From assembly GCA_052034685.1 (NCBI GenBank), contig JBPOIH010000008.1, forward strand, positions 3,502 to 67,501: a stretch of DNA of 64,000 bases. The letters run 5' to 3'. A program made the translations under genes and the position numbers. This document shows, piece by piece, positions 22,375 through 53,019 of the stretch (positions within the stretch are counted from its first letter, which is position 1; every line of letters starts with the position of its first letter). Source of the stretch: Patescibacteria group bacterium. GTDB lineage: Bacteria > Patescibacteriota > Saccharimonadia > Saccharimonadales > CAYUUR01. The notes beneath the pieces are model-generated. The model did not search any database. It was given only the letters and a program-made list of their open reading frames with translations, and was not told the DNA's origin.

Positions 22375-25300
22375 ATGTACAACATACTGCTCAAATATCA
22401 CTGGTGGAAATACAAGAAGGTTCAGCTATGCCTCTTTGTTTTACTGCTTATCTTTGCAGTTTTTTGGTTTCGATTGCACCAAACTCAGACTCTAAACTCC
22501 GCCGGTATTAACGAACAGTTGAACTTTCAGGCTCGATTGCTCGATGATACGGGGGCCGTTGTTCCAGACGGGTTTTATAATTTACGTTTTAAGGTGTATC
22601 AAGATGGAGATGGGTGTGTTGTATCAGGTACGTCACCTTGTAGTGGGACACTCGAGTGGACAGAAACTCGGGTAAGCACGGACAAGGTGCGGGTGAAGAA
22701 CGGCTACTTCTCCGTCTACCTTGGTTCTGTTAATCCTTTTGGTACGGATGTAGATTGGAACCAAGACACCTTATGGCTTTCAATTGACGTTGGCGGAACG
22801 GCAAGCCCATCATGGGATGGGGAAATGCTGCCATTTACCCGATTTAGCGCCACTCCGTACGCGAAGAATGCAAAAAAAGTTGGTGGCCTGTCTAAGGATG
22901 AGCTGTTACAGCTAGGCCAAGGCACTCTGCAGGTTGACTCCGGAGCTAATGATTCGATTGGGGTCAATAAGACTGGCGCCACTGGAGATATTCTTCAGTT
23001 ACAGCGTGCAGGCAGTGACGTTCTAGTGATTGATAATTCAGGAGTTCTCACTTTATCAAGAGACAACCCAGGCTCCGGAAACTCTAGTCGCATAAATATT
23101 TCGGCAAGCACGGGAACAATATATGGACAGATACAGCTGCGCGTGTCAGGTTCAGGATCCGGTGGATCAGGCGGTATGTCTTTCTATGGAAGAAAGACTG
23201 GATCCAACATTGAATTACTCAGGCTTAACTATGATTCAACTACAAGTGATCCATCGGCACTCTTGTTTTCGTCTGATGCCAGCAAGATAGCGTTTGGTAT
23301 TCGTGGTGCAGCCGCCCAAACCGCCAACCTCCAAGAATGGCAGAACAGCTCGGCAACAGTTCTTGCATCAGTCGGGGCAACGGGCAACGTGCTGTTTAAC
23401 CCATCAGCTGTGTCCGCAGATGCGTTTCGTGTGCAAGGTGCTGGAGCAAATGTTCTTCAGGTTGATACCACAGCGCGGGGTGTTAGCGGTGGTAATTTGG
23501 TTAAGGTTGGTAATTCGACAGGTACTGACGCTGATACCACGATCCTACAACTGGACGGTACGACAGCGGACCCGACCAGCAACTTGAGCGCCCTCAACGG
23601 AGGACTGTTCTATAACTCAACCAGTAACAAAGTATCAATTGTAGAAAACGGCGTTGTTAAGGTATTGTGTAACACGACAGACGCCGGTTGTGGCGCGGGT
23701 GGTAGCGGAGCACGGTTGGATCAAGTGACGGCTGCCACGAGTGGGGCAAGCATCAACAATGCTGCAAACAATATTGTTTGGAACTGGCAACTATCGGCTG
23801 CCGAGAGTGGCTTCACCTTTGCGGAGAATGTGGCCTCTACTGGTGGCGGCACACAAGATCAATTTATAACTGATATGGCGACACTGACTGGCTCGACGGC
23901 TTCACCTTTGCGGGTCACGTCCGCCTCAGTTGACGCTGCGGATGTGGTTTTCAACTTAGCGAGTGCTGGCGACATCGAGTTCCAAGACAATGGCACGGCA
24001 TTTATGACACTGAGTGATGCCGGTGCGTATACTTACACCCTTGATGCAACCGATAACCCAGCCTATACGATAACGAACAATGGGTCGGGTAATGTAGTGA
24101 CTAACCTTGCTGGAACGGGTGATCTCATTGTCCAGGACAACGGTACGGCGGTATTTACGATTGCTGATAGTGGCAAGATAGATACGGCCTTTACTAGCAC
24201 CAATACAACAGCGACAGATGATTATAGCCTCAAGGTTACAGTTTCGGATACAGGTATCGTCACGACCGGAACTGACAATACCTACGGGCAACAGCTATCT
24301 GTGTCTAGGAGTGGTGCCACTGGTGGCACGATCAACACCTTCGGTATCGATATAACAGCTAGTTCTGATAATGCCGGTGTTGGTGGCACCGCGACGGTAC
24401 GAGGATTGAATGCTATTGCAGGTGGCAATGCTTTCGGCAGCGCAGACTACATGTACGGTGTTGCTGGTGCTGCTCTTGCGGTCGCAGGTAATGATATTAC
24501 AAAGGCTGTGGGGGTTAGCGGTAGTGTAGGTAGCGTATTCTTTGCGGGAACCATAGTTGACGCGTATGCACTAGAAGGATCTATCAACGTGACAGGTGGC
24601 GGTACCATAACCACAGCCGCAGGCCTGCAGATCAATAGCGCCGCCATCTCCGCCGCCACCATAGCGAACAATTATGGTATTCGGGTTGCCGCTCAGACCG
24701 TAGGCACAACTGACTACGGCGTGGCAATTGAGGCGGCAGACACGCAGACGTTGTGGCTTAGTAGTAATGCGAATAATACGACAGCAAGCGCCGGTATAGC
24801 CTTTGGCTCGTCACGTGACACCAACCTATATCGTAGCGATGTAGCTACGCTCAAGACGGATGGCACTTTCCAGGTTGGCAGCGCCACGAGCCCGGGGCAG
24901 ATTGATCTGTATGGCGATCTTGTCAAAAAGGGCATTTCTAAGCAGACTGGCCTTACGGGCATATCAGATATCTTCATCTACGATACGACTAAGGATTCTG
25001 ATGTCGGCGCCTGGACAAACTCACCAACCTCTCAAGCTTTGAGCTGGTACACAGAGAGTAAGAATGATGGGTATGGTGATGCTTGTAACATCTCCAGTGA
25101 CACGCGTTGCGGCTCGTCGGCCTTCCCAAAGAAAGCGATTATCGTATCTACCACAAGTGCGGTGTATATATTTGATGCCAATGACTATAAAATGTTCATG
25201 AAGTTCGACCAAAATGCTTCAGGCTATGCTCTGGGCGTAGATACAAACAATGATCCTTCCAGTGTATTTGCGCTCAACGGTGTTGTATACGTCGGTGCTA

Positions 25301-28300
25301 ACGGTTCAGCAGCCGGCGGTTTATATGCTATCGACTTCACGAGTGACCGTTTATTTAACTACAATACGACTGATCGAGACCAGGGTAATAAGAATATCGC
25401 TAACCGCAACACGGCTGTGACTTATAACGTTGATAGTCGAACGGCTATGGCGATTCGTCATAACGCTGTAAATGCCGTGCACGGCTCGGTGTTATATGGA
25501 TCAAGCTCAATTGAAACTAACGGTGGTCCGCTCAACGGTGCAACATTTATTGCAGCCGCTACAGATGACTCGATGTCGGTGATCAATCTTTCAGCGCAAC
25601 AAACGCTTGATTATGGCGACAACCTAACAGATCAGTTTAGTTCTGTGTATGTGACAAAGAGGGGTCGTCTCTATGGGCTTAACGTGACCTTATCCCAAGT
25701 AGAGCGATATGGTACACAAGCCAACGGTACGGTTGGTATTGATGTAGCAAAGGCTGACCAGGCAACACCTACGGATGTGTTTGATGAGCAGGCTGCAAAC
25801 CTGCCGCACGTGGCAAACGGTGCGTCTGCACCAACGTTTGCGGTGGGTGCACCAGACGCTTTGAAGGTAATGGAACGCGCATCTATGGCTGATGACGCGG
25901 CAGATCTGATATATGTTGGCCATAGCGCTGGGCTAACAGAAGTTCACGATACTAACACGGCGTCTGGTACTTCTATTGGTTGGTCGAAGAACTACAATAT
26001 TAGCCGCGAGACTGGTTATATGTCAGGGACTCAACGAGGTATGTTTAGTTTTGATAACCTATCTGGAGATCTGACGGATGCAACTATTCGCAACAGTGTA
26101 CTTGAACCAGAAGTCGCGCCTACTTATGGGGTTAATGGTGTTCATGGCACAGGGCTGAGATTCAACGGCACGAGCCAATTCCTCTGTTCAGATGCTAATA
26201 ATGACGGTACTTGCGATACAGACGCTGACTTCAACGTTGCGGCCATCTCATTCCATGTAGAGGCGTGGTTTAAGCACTCTGCGACTGTTACAGGTACTGA
26301 CGTTCTAATTGATAAGCGATACAGTGCGTTTGCTGGTACGGAAGGTATCGGCTACACGGTTGAGATGAACTCAAGTGGTCAAATCGTTTTTGGTATTCAG
26401 GATACCGCTGCAACTGCTGGGTATGATGACTCTGTTACCTCAACTCAGACATATAACGATAACCAATGGCACCATGTCGTGGCTCTCAATACGGATACGG
26501 GTATATGTCTATACCTTGATGGTAAACTAGCCGTTGGCTGTGACACGACGCTTGGAGCAACCGGTACGTTAGATGCTTCACAAATTTTAACGATTGGTGC
26601 GGACGCTAGTGGTGCCGCAGGTGGAAACTTCTGGGATGGAGATATTGATGATGTCTACTTTGCCAGTGGTGGCGCTACTACATCTGATACTCTCAGTCAG
26701 GCACAAATCAGGAAACGATATCTTGAAGGACGCAGCGCGTTGGCTAAACCTTCGACAGTCGTATCGGCTGCGACTACAAGCAGTAGTACTACAATTGGTG
26801 ACTCTGGAGAGTCGTACGTCACTAACGCATTTGTGGGAAGTATGGTTGAGATTACTGGCGGAACAGGCGCTGGTCAGTCAAGACGAGTCATTGCCAACGA
26901 TGGCACGACCCTGACCGTTAGCCCGGCTTGGACGGTAACGCCAAGCACTGATTCAAACTATGAGGTTGTCCCGGAGAAATTGTACGGGGACACCAATACG
27001 GTCACGTCGATCGCACTCAATAACTCGAACTTCTTAGGCACAAACCCTGACTTATACGTTGGAACGAGTAATGGTAGTGATGGTGGGGCAGTCAGCGTCT
27101 TTGGTGGTTATGGAAATTCCTTCATATCAAATCTTTACCACTCAGATGCTGGTGTCACAGACACTACCAGCACAAGTTGGTCGGGTACGGACGCCGATGA
27201 CATTGACGCCTTCTCGGTAGAAAGCGGTGTGGTGGCAATGGGCTCTTCGGCGAATATGTGGTTTGAAAAGTTTGATAGAAATCTCGAGCAAGACGTCGAT
27301 AAGTTCTTCAGTAATGTATCCTCGATTCGAGGCGAGCTGATTGTTGACGGTATGGCAGGTGTGTCTTCAGAAGTTGGTGGCGTTGGTGGTGCTGACCTTG
27401 CCGAGCGCTTTACTTCGTTTGAATCACTAACCGCTGGCGAAATAGTTAGCTCAGAAGACAATAATGTTGGTGCAGTACGGCGAACTAGTCAAGCATATGA
27501 CGATAAGGCGCTTGGAATTGTGGCCACGCAGCCAGGCATCGTCATTGGTCCGCAAGAAGACAATTCATACCCGATTGCTCTCAGTGGTCGCGTTCCGGTT
27601 AAAATCGCACTTAAGCTGAACGAAAAGATAAAATCCGGTGACAGGATCACATCGAGCAGCGTTCCGGGGCATGGTATGAAGGCAGTAGCTGCCGGCCGAG
27701 TTATTGGTGTAGCCCTAGAAGATGTTAACCTAGACACATTGATTGATTGTCCAGAAGGAAGTCCAGATAATCTGCGCTGTACAACTATAACGGTATTTGT
27801 GAATTTGGTTGACTATAACGGCCAAAAAGTAGAGGTCGCTATGGAAGAGTTCCAAGACTCAGGCTTCACGCTACCAGATACGGTACTTGGACCGCTGGTT
27901 AATCTTCAAGAAGGCGTGCTGGACGAGAAACTCAAGAAGTCGGATGATATAATTCGCTATCTTCTGGGTCGCAAGCAGCAGCAAGCCGTCACAGACGAAC
28001 CGCAGTCGGAGATATTGGCCGACCGAGTCAGTGCGCTGGAGGTCAATGGCTTGAGTATCATCGCCAAAGACATTACCGCAGATAGCATCAAAGCTAATAA
28101 GATAGAAGGTCTTGAGTTGCTGGTAGGGAAGATAACCGGAAAGTCCACAAGATCTAGCAGTAGTGATGCTGCAGACGTTACTGCTACTTCTATCGACATG
28201 GATAACTTCATCGTCAAGACAGCGAAGGTCAGTAAGGATCTCACAATCGACGGAGCGTTATTTGCAAATGGAGCATTGGAAGTAGCAGGACCTGTTAAGT

Positions 28301-28665
28301 TCCTTAATACCTCCATCTTCTATAGACTTGCAACGTTCGTTGACTCGGTAATATTCAAGAATGACGTCGAGATCCAGGGGCGTTTGACGCAGAACAATGA
28401 CGCCGCTGGCTTCGCCACTATCTACAAGACACAGAAGAAGGTAGAAGTGAAGTTCGATAAGCCTTATGAGGACACGCCAGTGGTAACCGTTAACATCAAG
28501 AACGGTAAGTTCGCCCAGTTCGCCTATGACGACTTAAGCAAAAAAGGCTTCACGATTGTTCTGCCAGAAGACGCCACTGAGGATATAGAGTTTGCCTGGA
28601 CGGCGGTTAGTGTCAAAGGCGCTAAGACAGTCGAGTTACAACCTTCTACAAGCAAGACAGATTAG
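22375..28665 (+). CDS. Giant surface protein (2096 aa) with a LamG/concanavalin-like lectin domain
   Basis: Uninterrupted 2096-codon ORF with an N-terminal TM anchor. Long Gly/Thr/Ser/Ala/Asn-rich beta-type region. LamG-like block (LRFNGTSQFL...FHVEAWFK...NDNQWHHVVAL...LYLDGKL...WDGDIDDVYF) at about 26090-26670. Confidence 0.75.
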   Translation: MYNILLKYHWWKYKKVQLCLFVLLLIFAVFWFRLHQTQTLNSAGINEQLNFQARLLDDTGAVVPDGFYNLRFKVYQDGDGCVVSGTSPCSGTLEWTETRVSTDKVRVKNGYFSVYLGSVNPFGTDVDWNQDTLWLSIDVGGTASPSWDGEMLPFTRFSATPYAKNAKKVGGLSKDELLQLGQGTLQVDSGANDSIGVNKTGATGDILQLQRAGSDVLVIDNSGVLTLSRDNPGSGNSSRINISASTGTIYGQIQLRVSGSGSGGSGGMSFYGRKTGSNIELLRLNYDSTTSDPSALLFSSDASKIAFGIRGAAAQTANLQEWQNSSATVLASVGATGNVLFNPSAVSADAFRVQGAGANVLQVDTTARGVSGGNLVKVGNSTGTDADTTILQLDGTTADPTSNLSALNGGLFYNSTSNKVSIVENGVVKVLCNTTDAGCGAGGSGARLDQVTAATSGASINNAANNIVWNWQLSAAESGFTFAENVASTGGGTQDQFITDMATLTGSTASPLRVTSASVDAADVVFNLASAGDIEFQDNGTAFMTLSDAGAYTYTLDATDNPAYTITNNGSGNVVTNLAGTGDLIVQDNGTAVFTIADSGKIDTAFTSTNTTATDDYSLKVTVSDTGIVTTGTDNTYGQQLSVSRSGATGGTINTFGIDITASSDNAGVGGTATVRGLNAIAGGNAFGSADYMYGVAGAALAVAGNDITKAVGVSGSVGSVFFAGTIVDAYALEGSINVTGGGTITTAAGLQINSAAISAATIANNYGIRVAAQTVGTTDYGVAIEAADTQTLWLSSNANNTTASAGIAFGSSRDTNLYRSDVATLKTDGTFQVGSATSPGQIDLYGDLVKKGISKQTGLTGISDIFIYDTTKDSDVGAWTNSPTSQALSWYTESKNDGYGDACNISSDTRCGSSAFPKKAIIVSTTSAVYIFDANDYKMFMKFDQNASGYALGVDTNNDPSSVFALNGVVYVGANGSAAGGLYAIDFTSDRLFNYNTTDRDQGNKNIANRNTAVTYNVDSRTAMAIRHNAVNAVHGSVLYGSSSIETNGGPLNGATFIAAATDDSMSVINLSAQQTLDYGDNLTDQFSSVYVTKRGRLYGLNVTLSQVERYGTQANGTVGIDVAKADQATPTDVFDEQAANLPHVANGASAPTFAVGAPDALKVMERASMADDAADLIYVGHSAGLTEVHDTNTASGTSIGWSKNYNISRETGYMSGTQRGMFSFDNLSGDLTDATIRNSVLEPEVAPTYGVNGVHGTGLRFNGTSQFLCSDANNDGTCDTDADFNVAAISFHVEAWFKHSATVTGTDVLIDKRYSAFAGTEGIGYTVEMNSSGQIVFGIQDTAATAGYDDSVTSTQTYNDNQWHHVVALNTDTGICLYLDGKLAVGCDTTLGATGTLDASQILTIGADASGAAGGNFWDGDIDDVYFASGGATTSDTLSQAQIRKRYLEGRSALAKPSTVVSAATTSSSTTIGDSGESYVTNAFVGSMVEITGGTGAGQSRRVIANDGTTLTVSPAWTVTPSTDSNYEVVPEKLYGDTNTVTSIALNNSNFLGTNPDLYVGTSNGSDGGAVSVFGGYGNSFISNLYHSDAGVTDTTSTSWSGTDADDIDAFSVESGVVAMGSSANMWFEKFDRNLEQDVDKFFSNVSSIRGELIVDGMAGVSSEVGGVGGADLAERFTSFESLTAGEIVSSEDNNVGAVRRTSQAYDDKALGIVATQPGIVIGPQEDNSYPIALSGRVPVKIALKLNEKIKSGDRITSSSVPGHGMKAVAAGRVIGVALEDVNLDTLIDCPEGSPDNLRCTTITVFVNLVDYNGQKVEVAMEEFQDSGFTLPDTVLGPLVNLQEGVLDEKLKKSDDIIRYLLGRKQQQAVTDEPQSEILADRVSALEVNGLSIIAKDITADSIKANKIEGLELLVGKITGKSTRSSSSDAADVTATSIDMDNFIVKTAKVSKDLTIDGALFANGALEVAGPVKFLNTSIFYRLATFVDSVIFKNDVEIQGRLTQNNDAAGFATIYKTQKKVEVKFDKPYEDTPVVTVNIKNGKFAQFAYDDLSKKGFTIVLPEDATEDIEFAWTAVSVKGAKTVELQPSTSKTD

Positions 28666-29618
28666 TTAACACTAGTAACGTAGTCATAGGCCATTTTGGA
28701 TATGGCTTTGAAGTGCTGGTTTGTTTGATCGTCATCACTCTGCAGCATTAAACAGATGGCGTATTGGCGGTTAGGTACATAAACTATCCCACAGTCGCTT
28801 TGGGTTTGTTTGCTGAATGAACCGATCTTACGCGCAACTTTTATATTATCAGGGACTCCTGCTCGCAATCGGTCGTTGTCTCCTGATTCAGCTAGGTTGT
28901 TTAGTATTTCTTGTGAGTTATCTCGGTTAAGATGACATGAGAAATACAGGCACGATAAAAACGACGAATAGGCGCGAGAACTAATAAGCACGTAGCTGCC
29001 TGTTCCGGTACTGGCCTCATTTAACTCAACATCGAGGCTCTTGATAGCTAATTCTTCATCTTTCATTATATCCTTGGTGCTAGAGTAGACGACGTATGCT
29101 GCAGTGTTGTCTGATTCTGTTAGTGCGATTTTGGCCGCTTGTCTAAGAGTGATTGTGTCTCCGGGCTTGAGCCGGTTGGTGTTGCCGTAGACACCGTCGC
29201 TACTAACTGCTTCAGCGGTGACTGTAACTTGCTTATCAAGGTCTACTTTGCCTAGCTCTGCCGCCTTGTATAGATCCATAACAATCGGGATTTTCATGAG
29301 TGATGCACCGACCAATTCGTTAGTTTCACCGTCACGGATGTTGGTGCCAGTCGGGAGGTATTCAAAGTAAAAGCTGTGCGGAATACCTGTTTTAGCCAGA
29401 TAATCTTTGATTTTAGTCCGTAGAGGAGAGAAGTTGACGATGGTGTCATTGGGGTTCTCCAGGAATATTCGCTTTGCAAGCAAGGGGTATTTAGCCTGGG
29501 CCTCCGTTGGCATCTCGTTCTTCTTGGAGCAGAAAAGCTGGTAGGCCAAAAATATACTTACAAATAACAGAATAATAGTGGTGATGGCGAATAAGTTACG
29601 TTTCAAATAATTCCTCAT
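28662..29618 (-). CDS. Membrane-anchored class A beta-lactamase-like serine hydrolase
   Basis: N-terminal TM helix. SxxK (SLMK), SDN (ESDNTAA) and a KTG-like motif (RKIGSF), in the correct order and spacing. Confidence 0.65.
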   Translation of the reverse strand: MRNYLKRNLFAITTIILLFVSIFLAYQLFCSKKNEMPTEAQAKYPLLAKRIFLENPNDTIVNFSPLRTKIKDYLAKTGIPHSFYFEYLPTGTNIRDGETNELVGASLMKIPIVMDLYKAAELGKVDLDKQVTVTAEAVSSDGVYGNTNRLKPGDTITLRQAAKIALTESDNTAAYVVYSSTKDIMKDEELAIKSLDVELNEASTGTGSYVLISSRAYSSFLSCLYFSCHLNRDNSQEILNNLAESGDNDRLRAGVPDNIKVARKIGSFSKQTQSDCGIVYVPNRQYAICLMLQSDDDQTNQHFKAISKMAYDYVTSVN

Positions 29619-30246: not shown

Positions 30247-30323
30247 GGGCTCGTGGTGTAGAGGCCTAACATGCCTCCCTGTCACGGAGGAGATCGCCGG
30301 TTCGAATCCGGTCGGGCCCGCCA
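30247..30323 (+). tRNA. tRNA-Asp (anticodon GTC)
   Basis: Acceptor GGGCTCG/CGGGCCC, anticodon arm CCTCC-CTGTCAC-GGAGG, T-arm GCCGG-TTCGAAT-CCGGT, discriminator G, encoded CCA. Confidence 0.9.
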
Positions 30324-30324
30324 A
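30308..30324 (+). repeat. Direct repeat copy 1 (tRNA-Asp 3' end), CCGGTCGGGCCCGCCAA
   Basis: An identical 17-mer recurs at 31372-31388. Degenerate copies lie at 30491-30502, 31941-31947 and 33159-33170. Confidence 0.85.
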
Positions 30325-30363
30325 TGAAAATGAGTCATCCATGTGATGGCTCTTTTTCATTGG
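30321..30363 (+). terminator. Long hairpin immediately after tRNA-Asp (includes the CCA end)
   Basis: CCAATGAAAA (30321-30330) pairs with TTTTCATTGG (30354-30363). Inner GAG-CATC/GATG-CTC pairs. The U-tract is weak, so terminator function is uncertain. Confidence 0.45.
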
Positions 30364-30377
30364 CCGAGCTTTTCCCA

Positions 30378-30467
30378 GATTCGAACCGGCGATGCAGATT
30401 TGCCTTCAGGCAAAGATGCGAATCGCCAGTTCGGTCGGCAAGGGCTCTCGCAGGAGCTCGCTCCGAG
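30378..30467 (+). repeat. GC-rich composite repeat (X element) containing hairpin module A
   Basis: GATTCGAACCGGCGAT (30378-30393) is the reverse complement of tRNA-Asp 30293-30308. Hairpin GGCGAT...ATCGCC spans 30388-30427. The core CGCAGGAGCTCGCTCCGAG (30449-30467) recurs inverted at 46588-46606. Confidence 0.8.
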
Positions 30468-30550
30468 AAAGCCCGCAGCCGTGCGCAGAAGGTCGGGTCG
30501 CCTAAACGCCAGCCTGTCTGTCCGACAGAACGGACAAGGATCGCCAGCCA

Positions 30551-30579
30551 TTGATTAAATCAGGGTTTTATGGTATCAT
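30551..30579 (+). promoter_or_regulatory. Sigma70-type promoter of cassette gene 1
   Basis: TTGATT (30551-30556), a 17-nt spacer, then TGG-TATCAT (-10 at 30574-30579). Confidence 0.55.
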
Positions 30580-30645
30580 TTGTATTATTATGACGATACT
30601 TCTCAGGTACAACCAGAGTTATAACGTTTATGCACGGAGTTCAAC

Positions 30646-31200
30646 GTGCTGAAACTAATACCTCCCCAGGAACTCGGACCTGTAGATCCTGCAGGTATTC
30701 AAGAGTTCGGTACGATCTACGAAAGAGCAGGTTGGCCTTTTCATTCTGCCATGGACTCCACAGCTGAGGATATTCTACAACCGATTGTAACAACGGTTTT
30801 GGCTTATGACCCCAACGTAAAAGCTATGGCATTTGTAGCTGTCACAGGCGCAGTCCCAGTACATCGGTCACAGATAAATAAAGGCTGGCACTTTGATGGC
30901 CGTACCGTTGTAGCTGCGGACGTATTACCTACAGAATTTGCACTAGGCAGGTTACCGTCCAATCCGGCATTGAGTACATTTATGCGGATGGCAGGCAATA
31001 AAGTGTATGAGTCTCAAGCAGCACAGCGACACCTTTCTGATCTTAGTGATGATGAATTAGCGGTGAAGGGTATTGGGACGCACGCAGTACGCGCGAATAC
31101 TCTGAATTTTCTGAGCGAGCGCACTCTACATCGCTCCGGAATAAACAGAGGCGATGCACCAGTAAAACGTAATTTTCTGGGTGCGAGTTTATATTACTAG
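30646..31200 (+). CDS. Hypothetical protein (184 aa), cassette gene 1
   Basis: GTG start preceded by GGAG. No confident family match. The WHFDG ... TLHRSG spacing faintly resembles the HxD...H of 2OG/Fe(II) oxygenases (speculative). Confidence 0.5.
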   Translation: MLKLIPPQELGPVDPAGIQEFGTIYERAGWPFHSAMDSTAEDILQPIVTTVLAYDPNVKAMAFVAVTGAVPVHRSQINKGWHFDGRTVVAADVLPTEFALGRLPSNPALSTFMRMAGNKVYESQAAQRHLSDLSDDELAVKGIGTHAVRANTLNFLSERTLHRSGINRGDAPVKRNFLGASLYY

Positions 31201-31251
31201 ACGTTCGACAGGGCTTTTTACTTGGTCCGGTTTCGGTTGGTTTCAAAGCAA

Positions 31252-31288
31252 GGCGATGCAGCTTGCCCACGGCAAGATGCGAATCGCC
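31252..31288 (+). repeat. Hairpin module A' (second copy)
   Basis: GGCGAT-GCAG-CTTGCC cac GGCAAG-ATGCGA-ATCGCC. It has the same architecture as 30388-30427, with one compensatory pair change. Confidence 0.75.
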
Positions 31289-31371
31289 GGTACGTTCGTG
31301 ACGAGTGCGCACACCCGGCCTCCTGCAAGGAAGCCGGGGAGCACACGAGGAAACGGTTCTAAAAGAACCAC

Positions 31372-31388
31372 CCGGTCGGGCCCGCCAA
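31372..31388 (+). repeat. Direct repeat copy 2 of the tRNA-Asp 3' end (att-like)
   Basis: Exact 17-nt match to 30308-30324, immediately followed by a promoter. Confidence 0.85.
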
Positions 31389-31389
31389 G

Positions 31390-31418
31390 TTGACTTTACA
31401 TAGTGTTTATGCTATTAT
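31390..31418 (+). promoter_or_regulatory. Sigma70-type promoter of cassette gene 2 (leaderless transcript)
   Basis: TTGACT (31390-31395), a 17-nt spacer, TGC-TATTAT (-10 at 31413-31418), then the ATG at 31426, 7 nt after the -10. Confidence 0.65.
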
Positions 31419-31425
31419 AGTGAGT

Positions 31426-31866
31426 ATGAAAAGTTCCAGTGATTTAAGCACGGCTCAACGAGAAGTTCTTCATAGCAACCTGCTCGGTAGCATGGAGTCT
31501 GGTTTAGCTTCAAGATATTTCACTACCCAAAGAGAACACGCTAAACGCTTAGGTCGGCTTGCTAGTAATCCTAACGATCCTTTAGGCGACAAACTCCAAG
31601 AGCTTTCTACGGGCAGAGCGGTGGCAGCAGGGGCAGAGGCACCATTTATGTTTACGACACGACCAAGCAACATGGCCCAAGAACTAATCGCTCTAAAAGC
31701 TAATCCTCAAACAGGCGAGGTAATCCCTGGTTCGGATGTACAAATAGGTCTAATAGGTGGCCTAGCTGGCGAAGGTCGTCCAACTGGTTCATTTACCCCT
31801 GAAGATATTGCTTTGGCAACAGAGTCTATGGCTGCACAAGATGCCGTGGGCCTTCAAGTAAACTAA
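31426..31866 (+). CDS. Hypothetical protein (146 aa), cassette gene 2
   Basis: The ORF frame is open from 31390, but the TTG at 31390 is the -35 hexamer, so I prefer the ATG at 31426. No recognised motif. Confidence 0.5.
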   Translation: MKSSSDLSTAQREVLHSNLLGSMESGLASRYFTTQREHAKRLGRLASNPNDPLGDKLQELSTGRAVAAGAEAPFMFTTRPSNMAQELIALKANPQTGEVIPGSDVQIGLIGGLAGEGRPTGSFTPEDIALATESMAAQDAVGLQVN

Positions 31867-31988
31867 AGTAGCTCCAAACTTCCACGCGCACCCGGTCTCC
31901 TGCAAGGAAGCCGGGGAGCACGAGAGCAGATGTGCGTTACCCGGTCGTACAGCCTGTCTGCCCAACGAACAGACAAGGGTTCAAAAGA

Positions 31989-32017
31989 TTGACTTAATAT
32001 CATTTTTGTGGTAATAT
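31989..32017 (+). promoter_or_regulatory. Sigma70-type promoter of cassette gene 3 (fic)
   Basis: TTGACT (31989-31994), a 17-nt spacer, then TAATAT (32012-32017). Confidence 0.55.
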
Positions 32018-32053: not shown

Positions 32054-33094
32054 ATGTCTGAAACAATCGCGCAAACACTCGAAACAAAGACAATCCCTAC
32101 CGTCGTCGCATTAATGGAGCGCCTTGGTGCAGCAGAGACATTTGCTACTCCTGAAGCAGCAAAACAGTTTATTGAAGCACACTCCTACGAAGACTTTTCG
32201 TCACTTCTTAATCGTCTCAACGGTCTTCAACGTAACATCCCGACTTCAGGTAGGCATATGGACGGTGGTGGCTTCGTACAACAAACAGGTGCGCTATCCG
32301 GTAGTAGCATTGAACATCAACCTCCGCTCAAAGAGGATCGCGAGCCACTCATGCGACACGCCTACGAAGCCGCTCAGCAAGCCCCGTCACCTGAAGACGC
32401 TGCTCTTATTCTGGGTCTATCCATTAACGCTATCCACCCTTACGAAGATGGAAACGGTAGAACAAGCAGATTTACTTACATGCTTCTTGAACACGGCTAT
32501 AATGGAACCGACGAAGACAATGGTATATACTCTTCTTTGCTAGAAAATACAAGAGGTCGTGAACTTGTCGATCTTGATCCTTCACGTTCTAATCTAGACT
32601 ATTGGTGTGCACTTCTAGCGACAGCAAAAAGCGCCGAAGAGGTTGGCTATAATGGCCCTATCCCTACTTTCATATGGGGTGCGTTTGGCGATGCATTTGC
32701 AGGTGAGTATAGTCCAGCATTTGAAGGTGAGTATAGTCCAGAAAACATTGCTGTCAATGAGACTATTTCGAATGAAAGCAGAAAGAAACTGTATCAATCA
32801 ATTACCGACAAGGCGGAGCTCTCTGCGCTACCTGCAATGCTTCGCCTTATTAAAGATAAGGGGCTCGACCCAAGTGATTTCATTGAGCATTACCCCGCAG
32901 ATCCAGACTTACCCAGAAGTCGTGATCGCACTTTTCTCAAAGGTGATGAACTTATACCCTTGCTTAGTGAAAGGGATATTGACTTCGTCTACGACGAGTC
33001 TTTCAAGGAGCGTCGCAATTATGTCCTCGCACTCACTACCCTACCGGAGAGCATCATGACTCAACTAAAAGACTTTTATCGCCCAAAGCTATGA
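32054..33094 (+). CDS. Fic/DOC family protein (putative AMPylase), cassette gene 3
   Basis: The core motif HPYEDGNGRTSR matches HxFx(D/E)GNGRxxR, with Tyr in place of Phe. A tandem duplication encodes GEYSPAFE-GEYSPEN (32701-32740). Confidence 0.8.
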   Translation: MSETIAQTLETKTIPTVVALMERLGAAETFATPEAAKQFIEAHSYEDFSSLLNRLNGLQRNIPTSGRHMDGGGFVQQTGALSGSSIEHQPPLKEDREPLMRHAYEAAQQAPSPEDAALILGLSINAIHPYEDGNGRTSRFTYMLLEHGYNGTDEDNGIYSSLLENTRGRELVDLDPSRSNLDYWCALLATAKSAEEVGYNGPIPTFIWGAFGDAFAGEYSPAFEGEYSPENIAVNETISNESRKKLYQSITDKAELSALPAMLRLIKDKGLDPSDFIEHYPADPDLPRSRDRTFLKGDELIPLLSERDIDFVYDESFKERRNYVLALTTLPESIMTQLKDFYRPKL

Positions 33095-33285
33095 GCAGAA
33101 AACGAACACGAAGCCGTGTAATTCTAACTTTCTTGAGCATAAAAGTTCCACATTCCCTCCGGTTCGGCCCATCAAATGTGTTTCTTTCTGCTCGTGTTTA
33201 CGCAATACATGCAGTAGTTTCAATGAATCTAGTTCGGACTATTGGGCACGGCGCGAGATGGTAGGATGTTTGCTATTATGAATAT

Positions 33286-34257
33286 ATGCATGACTTAAAC
33301 AAAGATCTGGAAGTAATCAGGTCTCAACAGCTTGCCAACGGCTTATGTCTGGCCGGTGATGGTCCGAACTACCAGCATGTCTGGATACGAGACAATGTCT
33401 ATGTTGCGCTGGCCTTGCAGGAATTCGGTCAGAACAAAGAGGCCGCTCGAGCTTACGAAGCGCTTTGCGTGATCATAGCCAAGTACCATTTACTGCTTGA
33501 GAGAAATACTTACCCAGTCGAAATCGATCAAATATTGCCGCCGCGCTTTACTGCTGATGGTTCAATAGTTGATGGCAAATGGAGCAATAAACAACACGAC
33601 GCTGTGGGAGTGCTTTTGTTTGGGCTTGGTCAGCTGCACCGCACTAACCAACCGCTACTGACGAGTGAAATGAAAAAAGTTTGCCAACAGCTAGTTCATT
33701 ACCTGGAGACATGCCAGTACTTTCGTGATGCCGACAATGGTATGTGGGAAGAAGTGTCTGCACTGCACGCATCGTCGTTGGCTGCCTGTATTAAGGGTAT
33801 TGAGAGCGTGGCCGGGTTTTGCGATCATGATGAGCACATGCTTGAACTAGCAAAACAGAATCTAGAGAATTTGTTGCCGAAAGAGAGCGTTCGGCATGAG
33901 GTTGACTTGGCGCAGTTGTCTCTGTTGTGGCCGTACGGCTATAAGCGCCCTGGCATTGTAGCGGCTATCGAAAGTGCGTTACTTCGCGAACACGGAGTGA
34001 TCCGTTACATTGGAGATACGTATGAAGCCAAGGACGGCGAAGAACCGCAGTGGGTTATGGGGTTGCCATGGCTCGGGATTGCTAACTTTGAACTAGGTAA
34101 TGTTGACAAGGCCAAAGAATATTTGCGTCGAACAGAAACGTTGTACACCAAGAACGGGTTGCCTGAGTCGTATCTAGCCAATAATAAACAGTGCTCACAT
34201 ACGCCTTTGGCTTGGTCGCATGCGATGGCTCTTGTGCTGCGCAGCAAGTTAGCATAA
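33286..34257 (+). CDS. Glycoside hydrolase family 15-like (glucoamylase-related)
   Basis: WIRDNVY, NKQHDAVG, NGMWEEV (catalytic Glu region) and GLPESY, in GH15 (alpha/alpha)6-barrel order. TATTAT box 6 nt upstream of the ATG. Confidence 0.65.
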   Translation: MHDLNKDLEVIRSQQLANGLCLAGDGPNYQHVWIRDNVYVALALQEFGQNKEAARAYEALCVIIAKYHLLLERNTYPVEIDQILPPRFTADGSIVDGKWSNKQHDAVGVLLFGLGQLHRTNQPLLTSEMKKVCQQLVHYLETCQYFRDADNGMWEEVSALHASSLAACIKGIESVAGFCDHDEHMLELAKQNLENLLPKESVRHEVDLAQLSLLWPYGYKRPGIVAAIESALLREHGVIRYIGDTYEAKDGEEPQWVMGLPWLGIANFELGNVDKAKEYLRRTETLYTKNGLPESYLANNKQCSHTPLAWSHAMALVLRSKLA

Positions 34258-46537: not shown

Positions 46538-46552
46538 TGGTAGGCGATAGAG
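46538..46552 (-). repeat. Fragment copy of the tRNA-Val 3' end
   Basis: TGGTAGGCGATAGAG versus TGGTGGGCGATAGAG at 46703-46717 (14 of 15 identical). Confidence 0.7.
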
Positions 46553-46587
46553 CGTAGCGGACTTTGTCCTTTTTCGCCGCAACCATG

Positions 46588-46653
46588 CTCGGAGCGAGCT
46601 CCTGCGCGTGGCCTTGCTTCACCGAACCTCGGCTACGCCGTACGGTTCGAATC
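46588..46653 (-). repeat. Inverted copy of the X element found downstream of tRNA-Asp
   Basis: Reverse complement matches 30378-30467: GATTCGAACCG, GTTCGGT, GCAAGG and the 19-nt core CGCAGGAGCTCGCTCCGAG. The variable hairpin is replaced by CGGC gta GCCG. Confidence 0.8.
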
Positions 46654-46671
46654 GATCGTATGTAAACCAAG

Positions 46672-46702: not shown

Positions 46703-46779
46703 TGGTGGGCGATAGAGGATTCGAACCTCTCACCTCGTCAACGTCAATGACGCGCTCTAGCCAAATGAGCTAATCGCCC
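46703..46779 (-). tRNA. tRNA-Val (anticodon GAC)
   Basis: Reverse complement GGGCGAT-TA-GCTC...GAGC-G-CGTCA-TTGACGT-TGACG-AGGTG-AGAGG-TTCGAAT-CCTCT-ATCGCCC-A-CCA. Confidence 0.9.
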
Positions 46780-46854
46780 GGATTATAAAAGAACTGCTAT
46801 CTTATTTGGCGGAGCACGTCAGACGCGTCATCTCTCTTTGCAACGGTGTTGCGG

Positions 46855-46875
46855 GCCAAATGAGCTAATCGCCCG
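46855..46875 (-). repeat. Fragment copy of the tRNA-Val 5' end
   Basis: GCCAAATGAGCTAATCGCCCG is identical to 46760-46780 (21 nt). The fragment lacks the rest of the D-arm. Confidence 0.8.
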
Positions 46876-47163
46876 AGCTATATATGGCGCAGAGTTGAAT
46901 TCTGACGCCCTCAGACAGCGATTAGCATACCAGAACAGGGGAGAAAAAGGAAGTATACCTTTTATGAGATAATTTCTATCCCCAGGCAAAATGTAGAAAT
47001 GACAATACTAAAGTACTAGCCATATCATGCTAGTACTGTATACTCATTGATGTGTGAGAGTTTTGATCGGTGTTTTATGCAGGCGCTTTCGAAGATAATT
47101 GCGAGAATCTTTGAACGGCGCTTGTTTCTTTTCCAGGGTATATTGCAGCTCAAAACAGGGGTG

Positions 47164-52870: not shown

Positions 52871-52935
52871 GGTCGGGATGACAAGACTTGAACCTGCGAC
52901 CTCACGGCCCCCAGCCGTACAAGGGGTCCCCACAA
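52871..52935 (-). pseudogene. Truncated tRNA-Pro(GGG)-like 3' fragment (no acceptor 5' strand or D-arm)
   Basis: Reverse complement gives TACGG-CTGGGGG-CCGTG-AGGTC-GCAGG-TTCAAGT-CTTGT-CATCCCG-A-CC. No complementary 5' acceptor strand lies upstream. Confidence 0.65.
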
Positions 52936-52943
52936 AATCTTTA

Positions 52944-53019
52944 TGGTCAGGGTGAGAGGACTTGAACCTCCGGTCTCCGGACCCCCAGCCCGGCGCTTTA
53001 CCAACTAAGCTACACCCTG
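52944..53019 (-). tRNA. tRNA-Pro (anticodon GGG)
   Basis: Reverse complement CAGGGTG-TA-GCTT...AAGC-G-CCGGG-CTGGGGG-TCCGG-AGACC-GGAGG-TTCAAGT-CCTCT-CACCCTG-A-CCA. Confidence 0.85.

Follow-up and report, generated by a model that had tools for sequence, protein, structure and literature searches.

The tRNA-Asp locus and its three GC-rich blocks

The locus described here lay in a 64,000-nucleotide (nt) stretch of contig JBPOIH010000008.1 from a bacterium of the Saccharimonadales (hereafter the window) and was anchored by a tRNA-Asp(GTC) gene at 30247-30323 on the plus strand (ARAGORN; Rfam tRNA, 59.7 bits). Three small plus-strand genes were located downstream of the tRNA: gene 1 (30646-31200, 184 amino acids (aa)), gene 2 (31426-31866, 146 aa), and a Fic-domain gene (32054-33094). 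A promoter scan revealed a separate sigma-70-like promoter, TTGAYT-17-TAnnAT, for each of them (30551-30579, 31390-31418, and 31989-32017, plus strand), and every promoter was directly abutted by the end of a GC-rich block: block 1 (30324-30550), block 2 (31201-31389), and block 3 (31867-31988). The blocks contained about 58% GC, compared with about 47% in the surroundings. They were copies or fragments of one hairpin-rich element that trailed tRNA genes in the Saccharimonadales, referred to below as the trailer element. The protein of gene 1 was an orphan, with a self-match only among 5.8 billion proteins and no homologue, and neither gene 1 nor gene 2 matched Pfam or NCBIfam.

The initial annotation had described three hairpin modules, A, B, and C, which were shared pairwise by the blocks. 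All three were found, at the positions given below on the plus strand, and nowhere else in the window. Block 1 started with a terminator hairpin, term1 (30320-30364), an inverted repeat with 20-nt arms that were 90% complementary and with the symmetric flanks AATGAAAA...TTTTCATT; a T run came directly after its terminator-like site at 30332-30352. Modules A, B, and C had no T run and so were not intrinsic terminators, for which only the 30332-30352 hairpin qualified. Next came invT (30375-30393), a 19-nt stretch inverted relative to the tRNA-Asp T-arm (30293-30311) and 95% complementary to it, which formed the 5' arm of module A; the arm was therefore derived from the tRNA, as had been proposed. 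Module A copy 1 (30388-30427) had a GGCGAU/AUCGCC closing stem and the inner stem UUUGCC/GGCAAA, with a minimum free energy (MFE) of -20.5 kcal/mol (z = -5.25). Its 3' arm ran into a degenerate direct tRNA copy, ATCGCCAGTTCGG, again in line with the earlier description, and the direct partial copy dirT, ATCGCCAGTTCGGTCG (30422-30437), comprised the tRNA variable loop, the 5' half of the T-stem, and TTCG. The core stem of the block, GGGCU...AGCCC (30442-30474), was defined from the fold together with alignment A2 and pair counts, and its tip was a 12-nt hairpin, module D (GGAGCUCGCUCC, 30453-30464), which occupied the position held by module B in block 2. A degenerate copy of the tRNA-Asp 3' end, AGGTCGGGTCGCCTAAA (30490-30506), was a weak match taken alone, and module C copy 1 (30510-30539, z = -1.74) lay between this copy and the gene 1 promoter.

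Block 2 contained near its start (31211-31251) the 3' half of the resident terminator, GGGCTTTTTACTTGG, and after it an inverted tRNA-end copy in decayed form, GGTCCGGTTTCGG..., which paired with the tRNA-end repeat at 31366-31383 as a long-range helix in the MFE fold. These were followed by module A copy 2 (31252-31288; inner stem CUUGCC/GGCAAG, MFE -20 kcal/mol, z = -3.77), by module B copy 1 with its basal stem (31308-31349), which included the invariant 23-mer CCGGCCTCCTGCAAGGAAGCCGG at 31315-31337, and by a second core hairpin, GGUUC-UAAAA-GAACC (31355-31369), with a hairpin at the same position in related copies. At the end of the block, the 3' end of tRNA-Asp was repeated exactly over 17 nt, CCGGTCGGGCCCGCCAA (31372-31388), with the gene 2 promoter directly after it. 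The original of this repeat began at 30308 within tRNA-Asp, and the repeat spanned the 3' half of the T-stem, the acceptor strand, the discriminator, CCA, and one additional A. Block 3 consisted of a core truncated to lack module A, with module B copy 2 at 31885-31926 (23-mer at 31892-31914), a degenerate tRNA-Asp 3' end copy, CCCGGTCGTACAGCC (31940-31954), and module C copy 2 (31950-31978), immediately before the promoter of the Fic-domain gene. The degenerate copy was again a weak match taken alone, and was homologous by position to the tRNA-end repeat of copy a in locus L027. A possible further tRNA-end remnant after the Fic-domain gene (33159-33174) had four mismatches, and about three such matches were expected by chance.

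The likeness between the module copies was confirmed for A and B. The two copies of module A shared GGCGATGCAG...GATGCGAATCGCC, folded as drawn with the z-scores given above relative to shuffles, and differed by one compensatory pair in the inner stem. The reported near-identity of module B was also correct: 31312-31344 and 31889-31921 differed at one position (C/T), with 0 such matches expected by chance, and the similarity extended to 42 nt (31308-31349 and 31885-31926). For module C, the repetition held for a 17-nt 5' part and a 12-nt 3' part, but the stability of the claimed hairpin exceeded that of shuffles only slightly (z = -1.7 and -1.8). The 17-mer pattern with up to three mismatches was not rare, with at least two matches in 7 of 100 shuffles, and the best fold of module C was different in sister strains. 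The exact 17-nt tRNA-Asp repeat, its degenerate copies, a further module CGCAGGAGCTCGCTCCGAG, and the promoter at the end of each block had been overlooked.

A trailer element built on the neighboring tRNA

Comparison of the related copies revealed the complete order of the element. The tRNA gene was followed by a bidirectional terminator with A and T runs arranged symmetrically, the 3' third of the tRNA as an inverted copy, a short loop that often contained GCGTAG, and a direct copy of the variable loop, the 5' half of the T-stem, and TTCG. A conserved core of about 85 nt, GTGGAGCGAGGACGCGCGCAC-B-GGAGCACGCCGCAG, was inserted in the T-loop of this direct copy, and after it came the second hairpin and then the tRNA segment from the T-loop to the CCA, repeated over 15-19 nt. 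The core consisted of a conserved basal stem with an exchangeable tip, which was the 25-nt module B in some copies and one of at least five 12-nt hairpins in others. The three modules therefore had unlike places in one larger unit, and the view of A, B, and C as equivalent modules that shuffle independently was not supported. Module A was the hairpin of the inverted and direct T-arm copies, so that its sequence followed that of the neighboring tRNA. Module B was the swappable tip of the conserved core stem, and module C lay 3' of the tRNA-end repeat, where the next gene unit begins. Likewise, the distribution of the modules (A and C in block 1, A and B in block 2, and B and C in block 3) was not attributed to pairwise exchange. 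Instead, block 2 was read as a complete resident copy, block 1 as an acquired copy, and block 3 as a truncated copy, as part of a joint best explanation of middling confidence.

The 23-mer of module B was found exactly in seven genome loci of Saccharimonadales or other Patescibacteria, in one gammaproteobacterial metagenome-assembled genome (MAG), and in 70 metagenome loci. About 20 of the B copies had the flanks seen in the window, which represent the trailer architecture. Across Saccharimonadales genomes and metagenomes, the family followed at least nine kinds of tRNA gene; the tRNAs preceding trailers included those for Glu, Val, Arg, Ser, Asn, Phe, Leu, and Asp, with B located 96-126 nt downstream of the tRNA. 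A profile lacking B recovered B-less copies, namely L013 after tRNA-Phe, L054, and the trailer of tRNA-Val in the window. The last was a second complete element of the family (46538-46670, minus strand) downstream of tRNA-Val (46703-46779, minus strand), with an nhmmer match at 46552-46628 (E = 2.7e-4, profile without module B). It contained GATTCGAACCG, GGTTCGG, a core with the tip GGAGCTCGCTCC, a hairpin GGAC-AAA-GUCC, and then the repeat of the tRNA-Val 3' end, which matched at 14 of 15 positions (46538-46552). The 19-mer CGCAGGAGCTCGCTCCGAG was a fourth shared module, present in block 1 and in this trailer on the minus strand at about 46.6 kb.

The repeats in each element matched the tRNA next to it. 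For the tRNA-end repeat, scores were 13-19 with the adjacent tRNA and 5-9 with unrelated tRNAs, and direct repeats of 17-19 nt were present in L009, L041, L048, and L026; the exceptions were L078, where the repeat was not found, and block 1, where it was degenerate. For the inverted copy, scores of 13-20 with the adjacent tRNA were obtained in 5 of 11 loci, and invT of the window scored 17 against tRNA-Asp and 6-15 against other tRNAs. This best fit of the inverted copy and the end repeat to their own tRNA indicated that module A is made of copies of the tRNA T-arm.

Searches for known relatives were negative. The covariance models of Rfam 15, including those of RtT, tRNA-like RNAs, and tmRNA, gave no match in the blocks at the gathering threshold or at E values up to 10, and the complete element of L048 matched only the tRNA itself and generic long hairpins below threshold. 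ARAGORN called only the true tRNAs in the element loci, with no tRNA-like call. Module B and module D were absent from viral contigs, and the eight viral matches to an 18-mer of the core were all due to chance, being located inside GC-rich coding sequence; a phage-borne origin was therefore not supported.

Structure was conserved while the sequence changed

The proposal that structure is kept over sequence was borne out by dozens of related copies, not by the two copies in the window, and it had formal support in two alignments (A2 and A3). Six tip hairpins were found at one position of the core: module B (25 nt), GGAGCUCGCUCC, GAAGCUCGCUUC, GAUGCUAGCAUC, GGAAUUUAUUUC, and GGAGCCUGCUCC. In the alignment of the B-less copies (A2), 91.7% of the cells were paired, double-sided changes occurred in four of the eight pairs, and the covariation score was reached by none of 500 shuffles, a count that is indicative and not a probability; sliding the partners abolished the pairing. 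The basal stem under B in the trailers (Y-R, G-Y, C-A, G-C, and C-G) also covaried, and in the two B copies of the window it contained U-A in one and C-G in the other. The same was observed in an unrelated context of B, a soil repeat GGAGGGGCGC-B-GCGCCCC (alignment A3), in which a 7-bp extension of the stem covaried, with 98.6% of cells paired, double changes in four pairs, and no match among 500 shuffles, to be read with the same reserve.

In the closing helix, both strands differed between the orthologous trailers of tRNA-Asn in L048 (UUUGGG/CCCGGG) and L074 (CCCUGG/CCAGGG), although the two strands of the helix were about 130 nt apart in these loci. The MFE prediction for the whole element of L048 and L074 was a four-way junction on the closing helix with a single-stranded NCCA. 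The second hairpin occurred in the variants GGAC/GUCC, GGCC/GGCC, GGCU/GGCC, GGGU/GCCC, and GGUUC/GAACC.

Variable DNA started at the tRNA-end repeat

Sister strains were recognized by an identical gene 2 protein in six separate samples. Their gene order was tRNA-Asp, the full terminator, block 2, the end repeat, gene 2, block 3, and the Fic-domain gene; block 1 and gene 1 were lacking, and block 2 adjoined tRNA-Asp. Block 1 and gene 1 were thus an insertion specific to the window, with the left junction right after the CCA of the tRNA. In the sister block 2, a 12-nt hairpin, GAAGCTCGCTTC, was present in place of B between near-identical flanks. The recombination inferred in the initial annotation was accordingly supported in the form of exchange between copies, on the evidence of the sister strains without block 1 and gene 1 and with the 12-nt hairpin at the position of B, and not as shuffling of free modules. 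The sister strains had C at the position that differs between the two B copies, so the C-to-T change in block 3 was derived; it yielded a G-U pair in copy 2. Downstream of the Fic-domain gene (33095-33300, compared with L091-L093), divergence was complete: the window continued with GH15 and GT4 genes, and the sister strains with a gene of 127 aa and a glyoxalase gene.

Comparable breakpoints were found in other loci. A homologue of gene 2 with 59% identity was present at the same position after a different tRNA (L098 and L099), and the end repeat of the element preceding it matched that tRNA. L048 and L074 shared the tRNA and the element (93% identity) and had nothing in common downstream of the repeat, where one continued with TerB_N, MazG-like, and DUF7149 genes and the other with a 914-aa NPPY-motif protein and then a second, partly decayed element. 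L024 and L045 parted at the end repeat, and L017 and L032 at or within it; L030 departed from L024 and L045 slightly earlier, just past the second hairpin, and had no repeat. Variable gene content thus started at the tRNA-end repeat. Elements in tandem were observed in L074, L054, L027, and the window, with genes in between except in L027, where the elements were 176 nt apart; L054 was an array of three elements separated by single genes. The Logan assembly of the window organism broke near the T-arm repeats of tRNA-Asp and inside module B.

Module B outside the trailers

The B hairpin had 10 pairs, a GCA loop, and one fixed C-A mismatch, and it was identical in more than 80 copies. Two copies were counted in the 64-kb window and three in one MAG. 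In L052 (917-939), a variable region of the 23S rRNA gene was expanded by an AT-rich insertion of about 190 nt that contained B in sense orientation, and conserved sequence on both sides placed the insertion in what is probably the area of helix 63. The same 23S rRNA gene had a second insertion at about 210-318. Additionally, B was found in a 16S-23S spacer, 20 nt after the 3' end of the 16S rRNA, as well as 14 nt before tRNA-Gly and directly after rpsJ. In that same spacer, a copy of the second context described below had a different hairpin in place of B.

Two further contexts lay between genes or in repeats. The second context was CATGAGGGAAGGTGACCCCTCCCCTCATCGCGC-B-GGCTGCTCCTCTCCC followed by a terminator, between genes of Patescibacteria-like contigs (L012, L018, L025, L033-L035, L043, L046, L053, L060, L064, L066, and L075, and, with B flipped, L020, L069, and L079). 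The third, in which the extension of the stem covaried, was a repeat about 150 nt long that occurred in multiple copies, ...CCCGCGCCAAAGCGGGGGTGGAGAGAACAATGATCGGAGGGGCGC-B-GCGCCCCGAGTTCGCAGCTCGCAGC..., in soil and rhizosphere contigs with 53-57% GC, often at contig ends (L014, L015, L019, L021, L022, L031, L038-L040, L044, L047, L049, L050, L055, L057-L059, L061-L063, L067, L068, L071, L073, L076, L077, and L080). The identity of B in rRNA, spacer, tRNA, and intergenic contexts characterized it as a portable stem tip of invariant sequence, which suggests a specific binding partner.

In L008 (5791-5813), from a MAG labelled Granulosicoccaceae (Gammaproteobacteria), the 23-mer formed the stem and loop of a hairpin resembling a terminator; this copy could be due to chance, convergence, or a mis-binned contig. 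Open reading frames (ORFs) of the IS200-like Y1 transposase type (YHxYNRG...PNHxH) were present, kilobases from B, in L003 (106-729, plus strand; Pfam Y1_Tnp) and in L066 (near 9060, minus strand). A resemblance of B to helix 8 of the signal recognition particle RNA was considered and dropped, as Rfam gave no match.

Possible roles of the element

In the favored reading, the hairpins would act on the tRNA-sense strand, most likely as RNA, in the form of trailer or 3' untranslated region structures that would define or shield the ends of transcripts or be bound by a protein. The repeated tRNA ends, with the conserved cores, would be sites where accessory genes with their own promoters are inserted or exchanged, either by site-specific recombination at the tRNA-end repeat or, once DNA has been taken up, by recombination anchored at the tRNA gene. 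The mosaic in the window could then have arisen from a resident element (block 2), an acquired tRNA-Asp element with the orphan gene, a truncated element, and replacement of the tip. We gave this combination of sense-strand structural modules and recombination at tRNA-end repeats an even chance of being correct. The sense strand was favored by the orientation of B in the rRNA, spacer, and tRNA contexts and by G-U pairs in the closing helix (three in L048), in the second hairpin, in module C, and in B copy 2.

Several observations weighed against it. The opposite strand folded more stably in 15 of 17 elements, by a mean of 4.3 kcal/mol, mainly because the two conserved C-A mismatches of B become G-U pairs there, and in L020, L069, and L079 B was inverted relative to identical flanks of the second context. 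A strong terminator was located between each tRNA and its element and no promoter was visible before the element, so transcription would need read-through. The second hairpin was paired at only about 65% in an unguided alignment, and the copies were related to one another, so that the shuffle controls overstate significance. On the side of recombination, the right junction of the insertion of block 1 and gene 1 lay inside the resident terminator and not at the tRNA-end repeat. No integrase adjoined any of about 25 elements in a motif scan, which was not a profile search, and the sole tyrosine recombinase signature in the window belonged to a Xer-like protein about 15 kb from the blocks (XerC/XerD-type ORF of 339 aa, about 14.1-15.1 kb, minus strand, C-terminus HTLRHSFATDLL...LGHSNIATTQIYTHV).

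An alternative that we consider unlikely is that the element is a recombination site of folded single-stranded DNA, like integron attC or the attP of CTX phage, at which a recombinase acting in trans inserts cassettes beside the tRNA. Within a single strand, the inverted and the direct copy of the tRNA would then form a duplex replica of the 3' third of the tRNA gene, and the hairpins would serve recombination rather than an RNA. The palindromic arrangement of the tRNA third would fit such a site, as would the conservation of structure with variable sequence, the single genes between the elements of the arrays in the window, L054, and L074, the start of variable DNA exactly at the tRNA-end repeat, and the position of the newest insertion of the window directly beside the tRNA. 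However, neither an integron-type nor any other integrase was adjacent, core sites of the GTTRRRY type were lacking, every gene had its own promoter, and most copies were "empty", with no gene attached. A recombinase would also need to recognize at least nine different tRNA ends, and a role in DNA recombination is unlikely for the B copies inside rRNA and spacer RNA. Quite improbable, in our judgment, is the spread of selfish palindromes of the repetitive extragenic palindromic (REP) or bacterial interspersed mosaic element (BIME) type by an IS200-like Y1 transposase of the REP-associated tyrosine transposase (RAYT) type, with the hairpins conserved only for the transposase. B resembles such elements as a short imperfect palindrome with a fixed mismatch in many intergenic contexts, occurs in both orientations relative to one shared context, and breaks assemblies, and Y1_Tnp-type ORFs were present in two B-containing loci, L003 and L066. 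These Y1 genes were 3-6.5 kb from B and not flanked by it, and the window had none; only one to three copies of B were found per locus or genome sampled, its flanks varied and included no conserved GTAG-type guide, and the tRNA-matched arms and tRNA-end repeat would be left unexplained.

The proposal that the blocks are inert scars, decaying attL and attR remnants of integrative elements once present in tRNA-Asp and now without function, was disfavored as very improbable. It would account for the exact 17-nt tRNA-end repeat with its degenerate copies, for the further partial tRNA duplications of the window at tRNA-Pro and tRNA-Val, and for the uncompensated changes in B of the decayed copy L074b. 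Scars would nevertheless not retain one internal architecture after nine different tRNAs in many species, show compensatory changes, or stay 93% identical amid unrelated flanking terminators and genes. Beyond the favored reading of sense-strand modules with recombination at tRNA ends, a bolder form envisages that each element gives rise to an RNA of about 150 nt with a cloverleaf-like fold, whose closing helix and 3'-NCCA copy the acceptor/T-arm strand of the neighboring tRNA. This is a doubtful proposition at present. If true, the RNA would be a mimic of the cognate tRNA minihelix, one-to-one with many tRNA genes, and enzymes or toxins that target the 3' ends of tRNAs might be decoyed by it or use it as a substrate. 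Such an RNA would constitute a new class of tRNA-like RNA in bacteria with reduced genomes.

The Saccharibacteria have tiny genomes with few recognized mobile elements, and how they gain accessory and defense genes is poorly understood. An element at many tRNA genes that marks the start of variable genes would be a searchable landmark for genomic islands in this group, and would add a candidate for a new structured RNA or recombination site. In practical terms, the repeats break short-read assemblies at exactly these loci.

Other partial tRNA copies and genes in the window

Just downstream of tRNA-Pro(GGG) (52944-53019), a 46-nt, 78% copy of the 3' half of a tRNA-Pro was found at 52871-52916 (minus strand), with matching changes in stem regions and a terminator after it; it resembles the trace of an old integration event at the position of the anticodon loop. 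The 5' end of tRNA-Val with some upstream bases (46760-46787) was partially duplicated at 46855-46882, a 28-nt copy with 89% identity located 95 nt upstream of the gene. Upstream of the tRNA-Asp locus, a 2096-aa protein with a Laminin_G_3 domain (22375-28665) was encoded next to a gene of the Beta-lactamase2 family (28662-29618, minus strand).

Comparison with known systems

No published description of the element was found in the literature. The element resembles known intergenic mosaics and tRNA attachment (att) sites, and no account was found that combines its features, namely the 3' third of the tRNA copied as a palindrome, a T-loop copy interrupted by a core, an exchangeable stem tip, and an NCCA end. 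The REP and BIME sequences of enterobacteria and the REP doublets forming hairpins (REPINs) of Pseudomonas are likewise short, GC-rich, imperfect, and extragenic palindromes with a fixed asymmetry that form mosaics with other motifs; they can stabilize upstream transcripts and promote rearrangements. In contrast, the copy number appeared very low in the loci sampled here, there was neither a linked RAYT gene nor a GTAG-type motif, and the modules of the window belonged to a larger unit built on the 3' end of the neighboring tRNA. The dRS3/RS elements of Neisseria and the BOX elements of pneumococci are similar as modular intergenic mosaics with stable folds that occur beside variable genes, and their hosts are naturally transformable, but they have no sequence relation to the trailer element and are not tied to tRNA ends.

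Integron attC sites and cassette arrays, including clusters of attC sites lacking integron integrases (CALINs), share the structurally conserved hairpins, the single genes in between, and the newest insertion by the anchor. They differ in that no IntI integrase or attI site was adjacent here (motif scan), and the R''-L''...L'-R' boxes with GTTRRRY were lacking; instead, the boundaries were tRNA 3' ends (...GCCA), the cassettes had their own promoters, the anchor was the end of a tRNA gene, and the shared site was the tRNA 3' end. In the E. coli tyrT operon, the distal repeats (rtT RNA) also follow a tRNA gene, each unit containing the last ~19 nt of the tRNA. The trailer element had no sequence or Rfam match to rtT RNA, its architecture was different, and it occurred at many tRNAs in another phylum. 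The tRNA att sites of tyrosine-integrase islands, and of tandemly accreted elements without an integrase of their own (cis-mobilizable element (CIME) type), have a similar direct repeat of the tRNA 3' end from the T-loop, and this repeat bounds strain-variable DNA and can form tandem arrays at one tRNA. In the loci studied here, however, the bounded DNA had no integrase, and the unit between the repeats was often only about 150-200 nt, was itself conserved and structured, and included an additional inverted tRNA copy and a core inserted in the T-loop copy.

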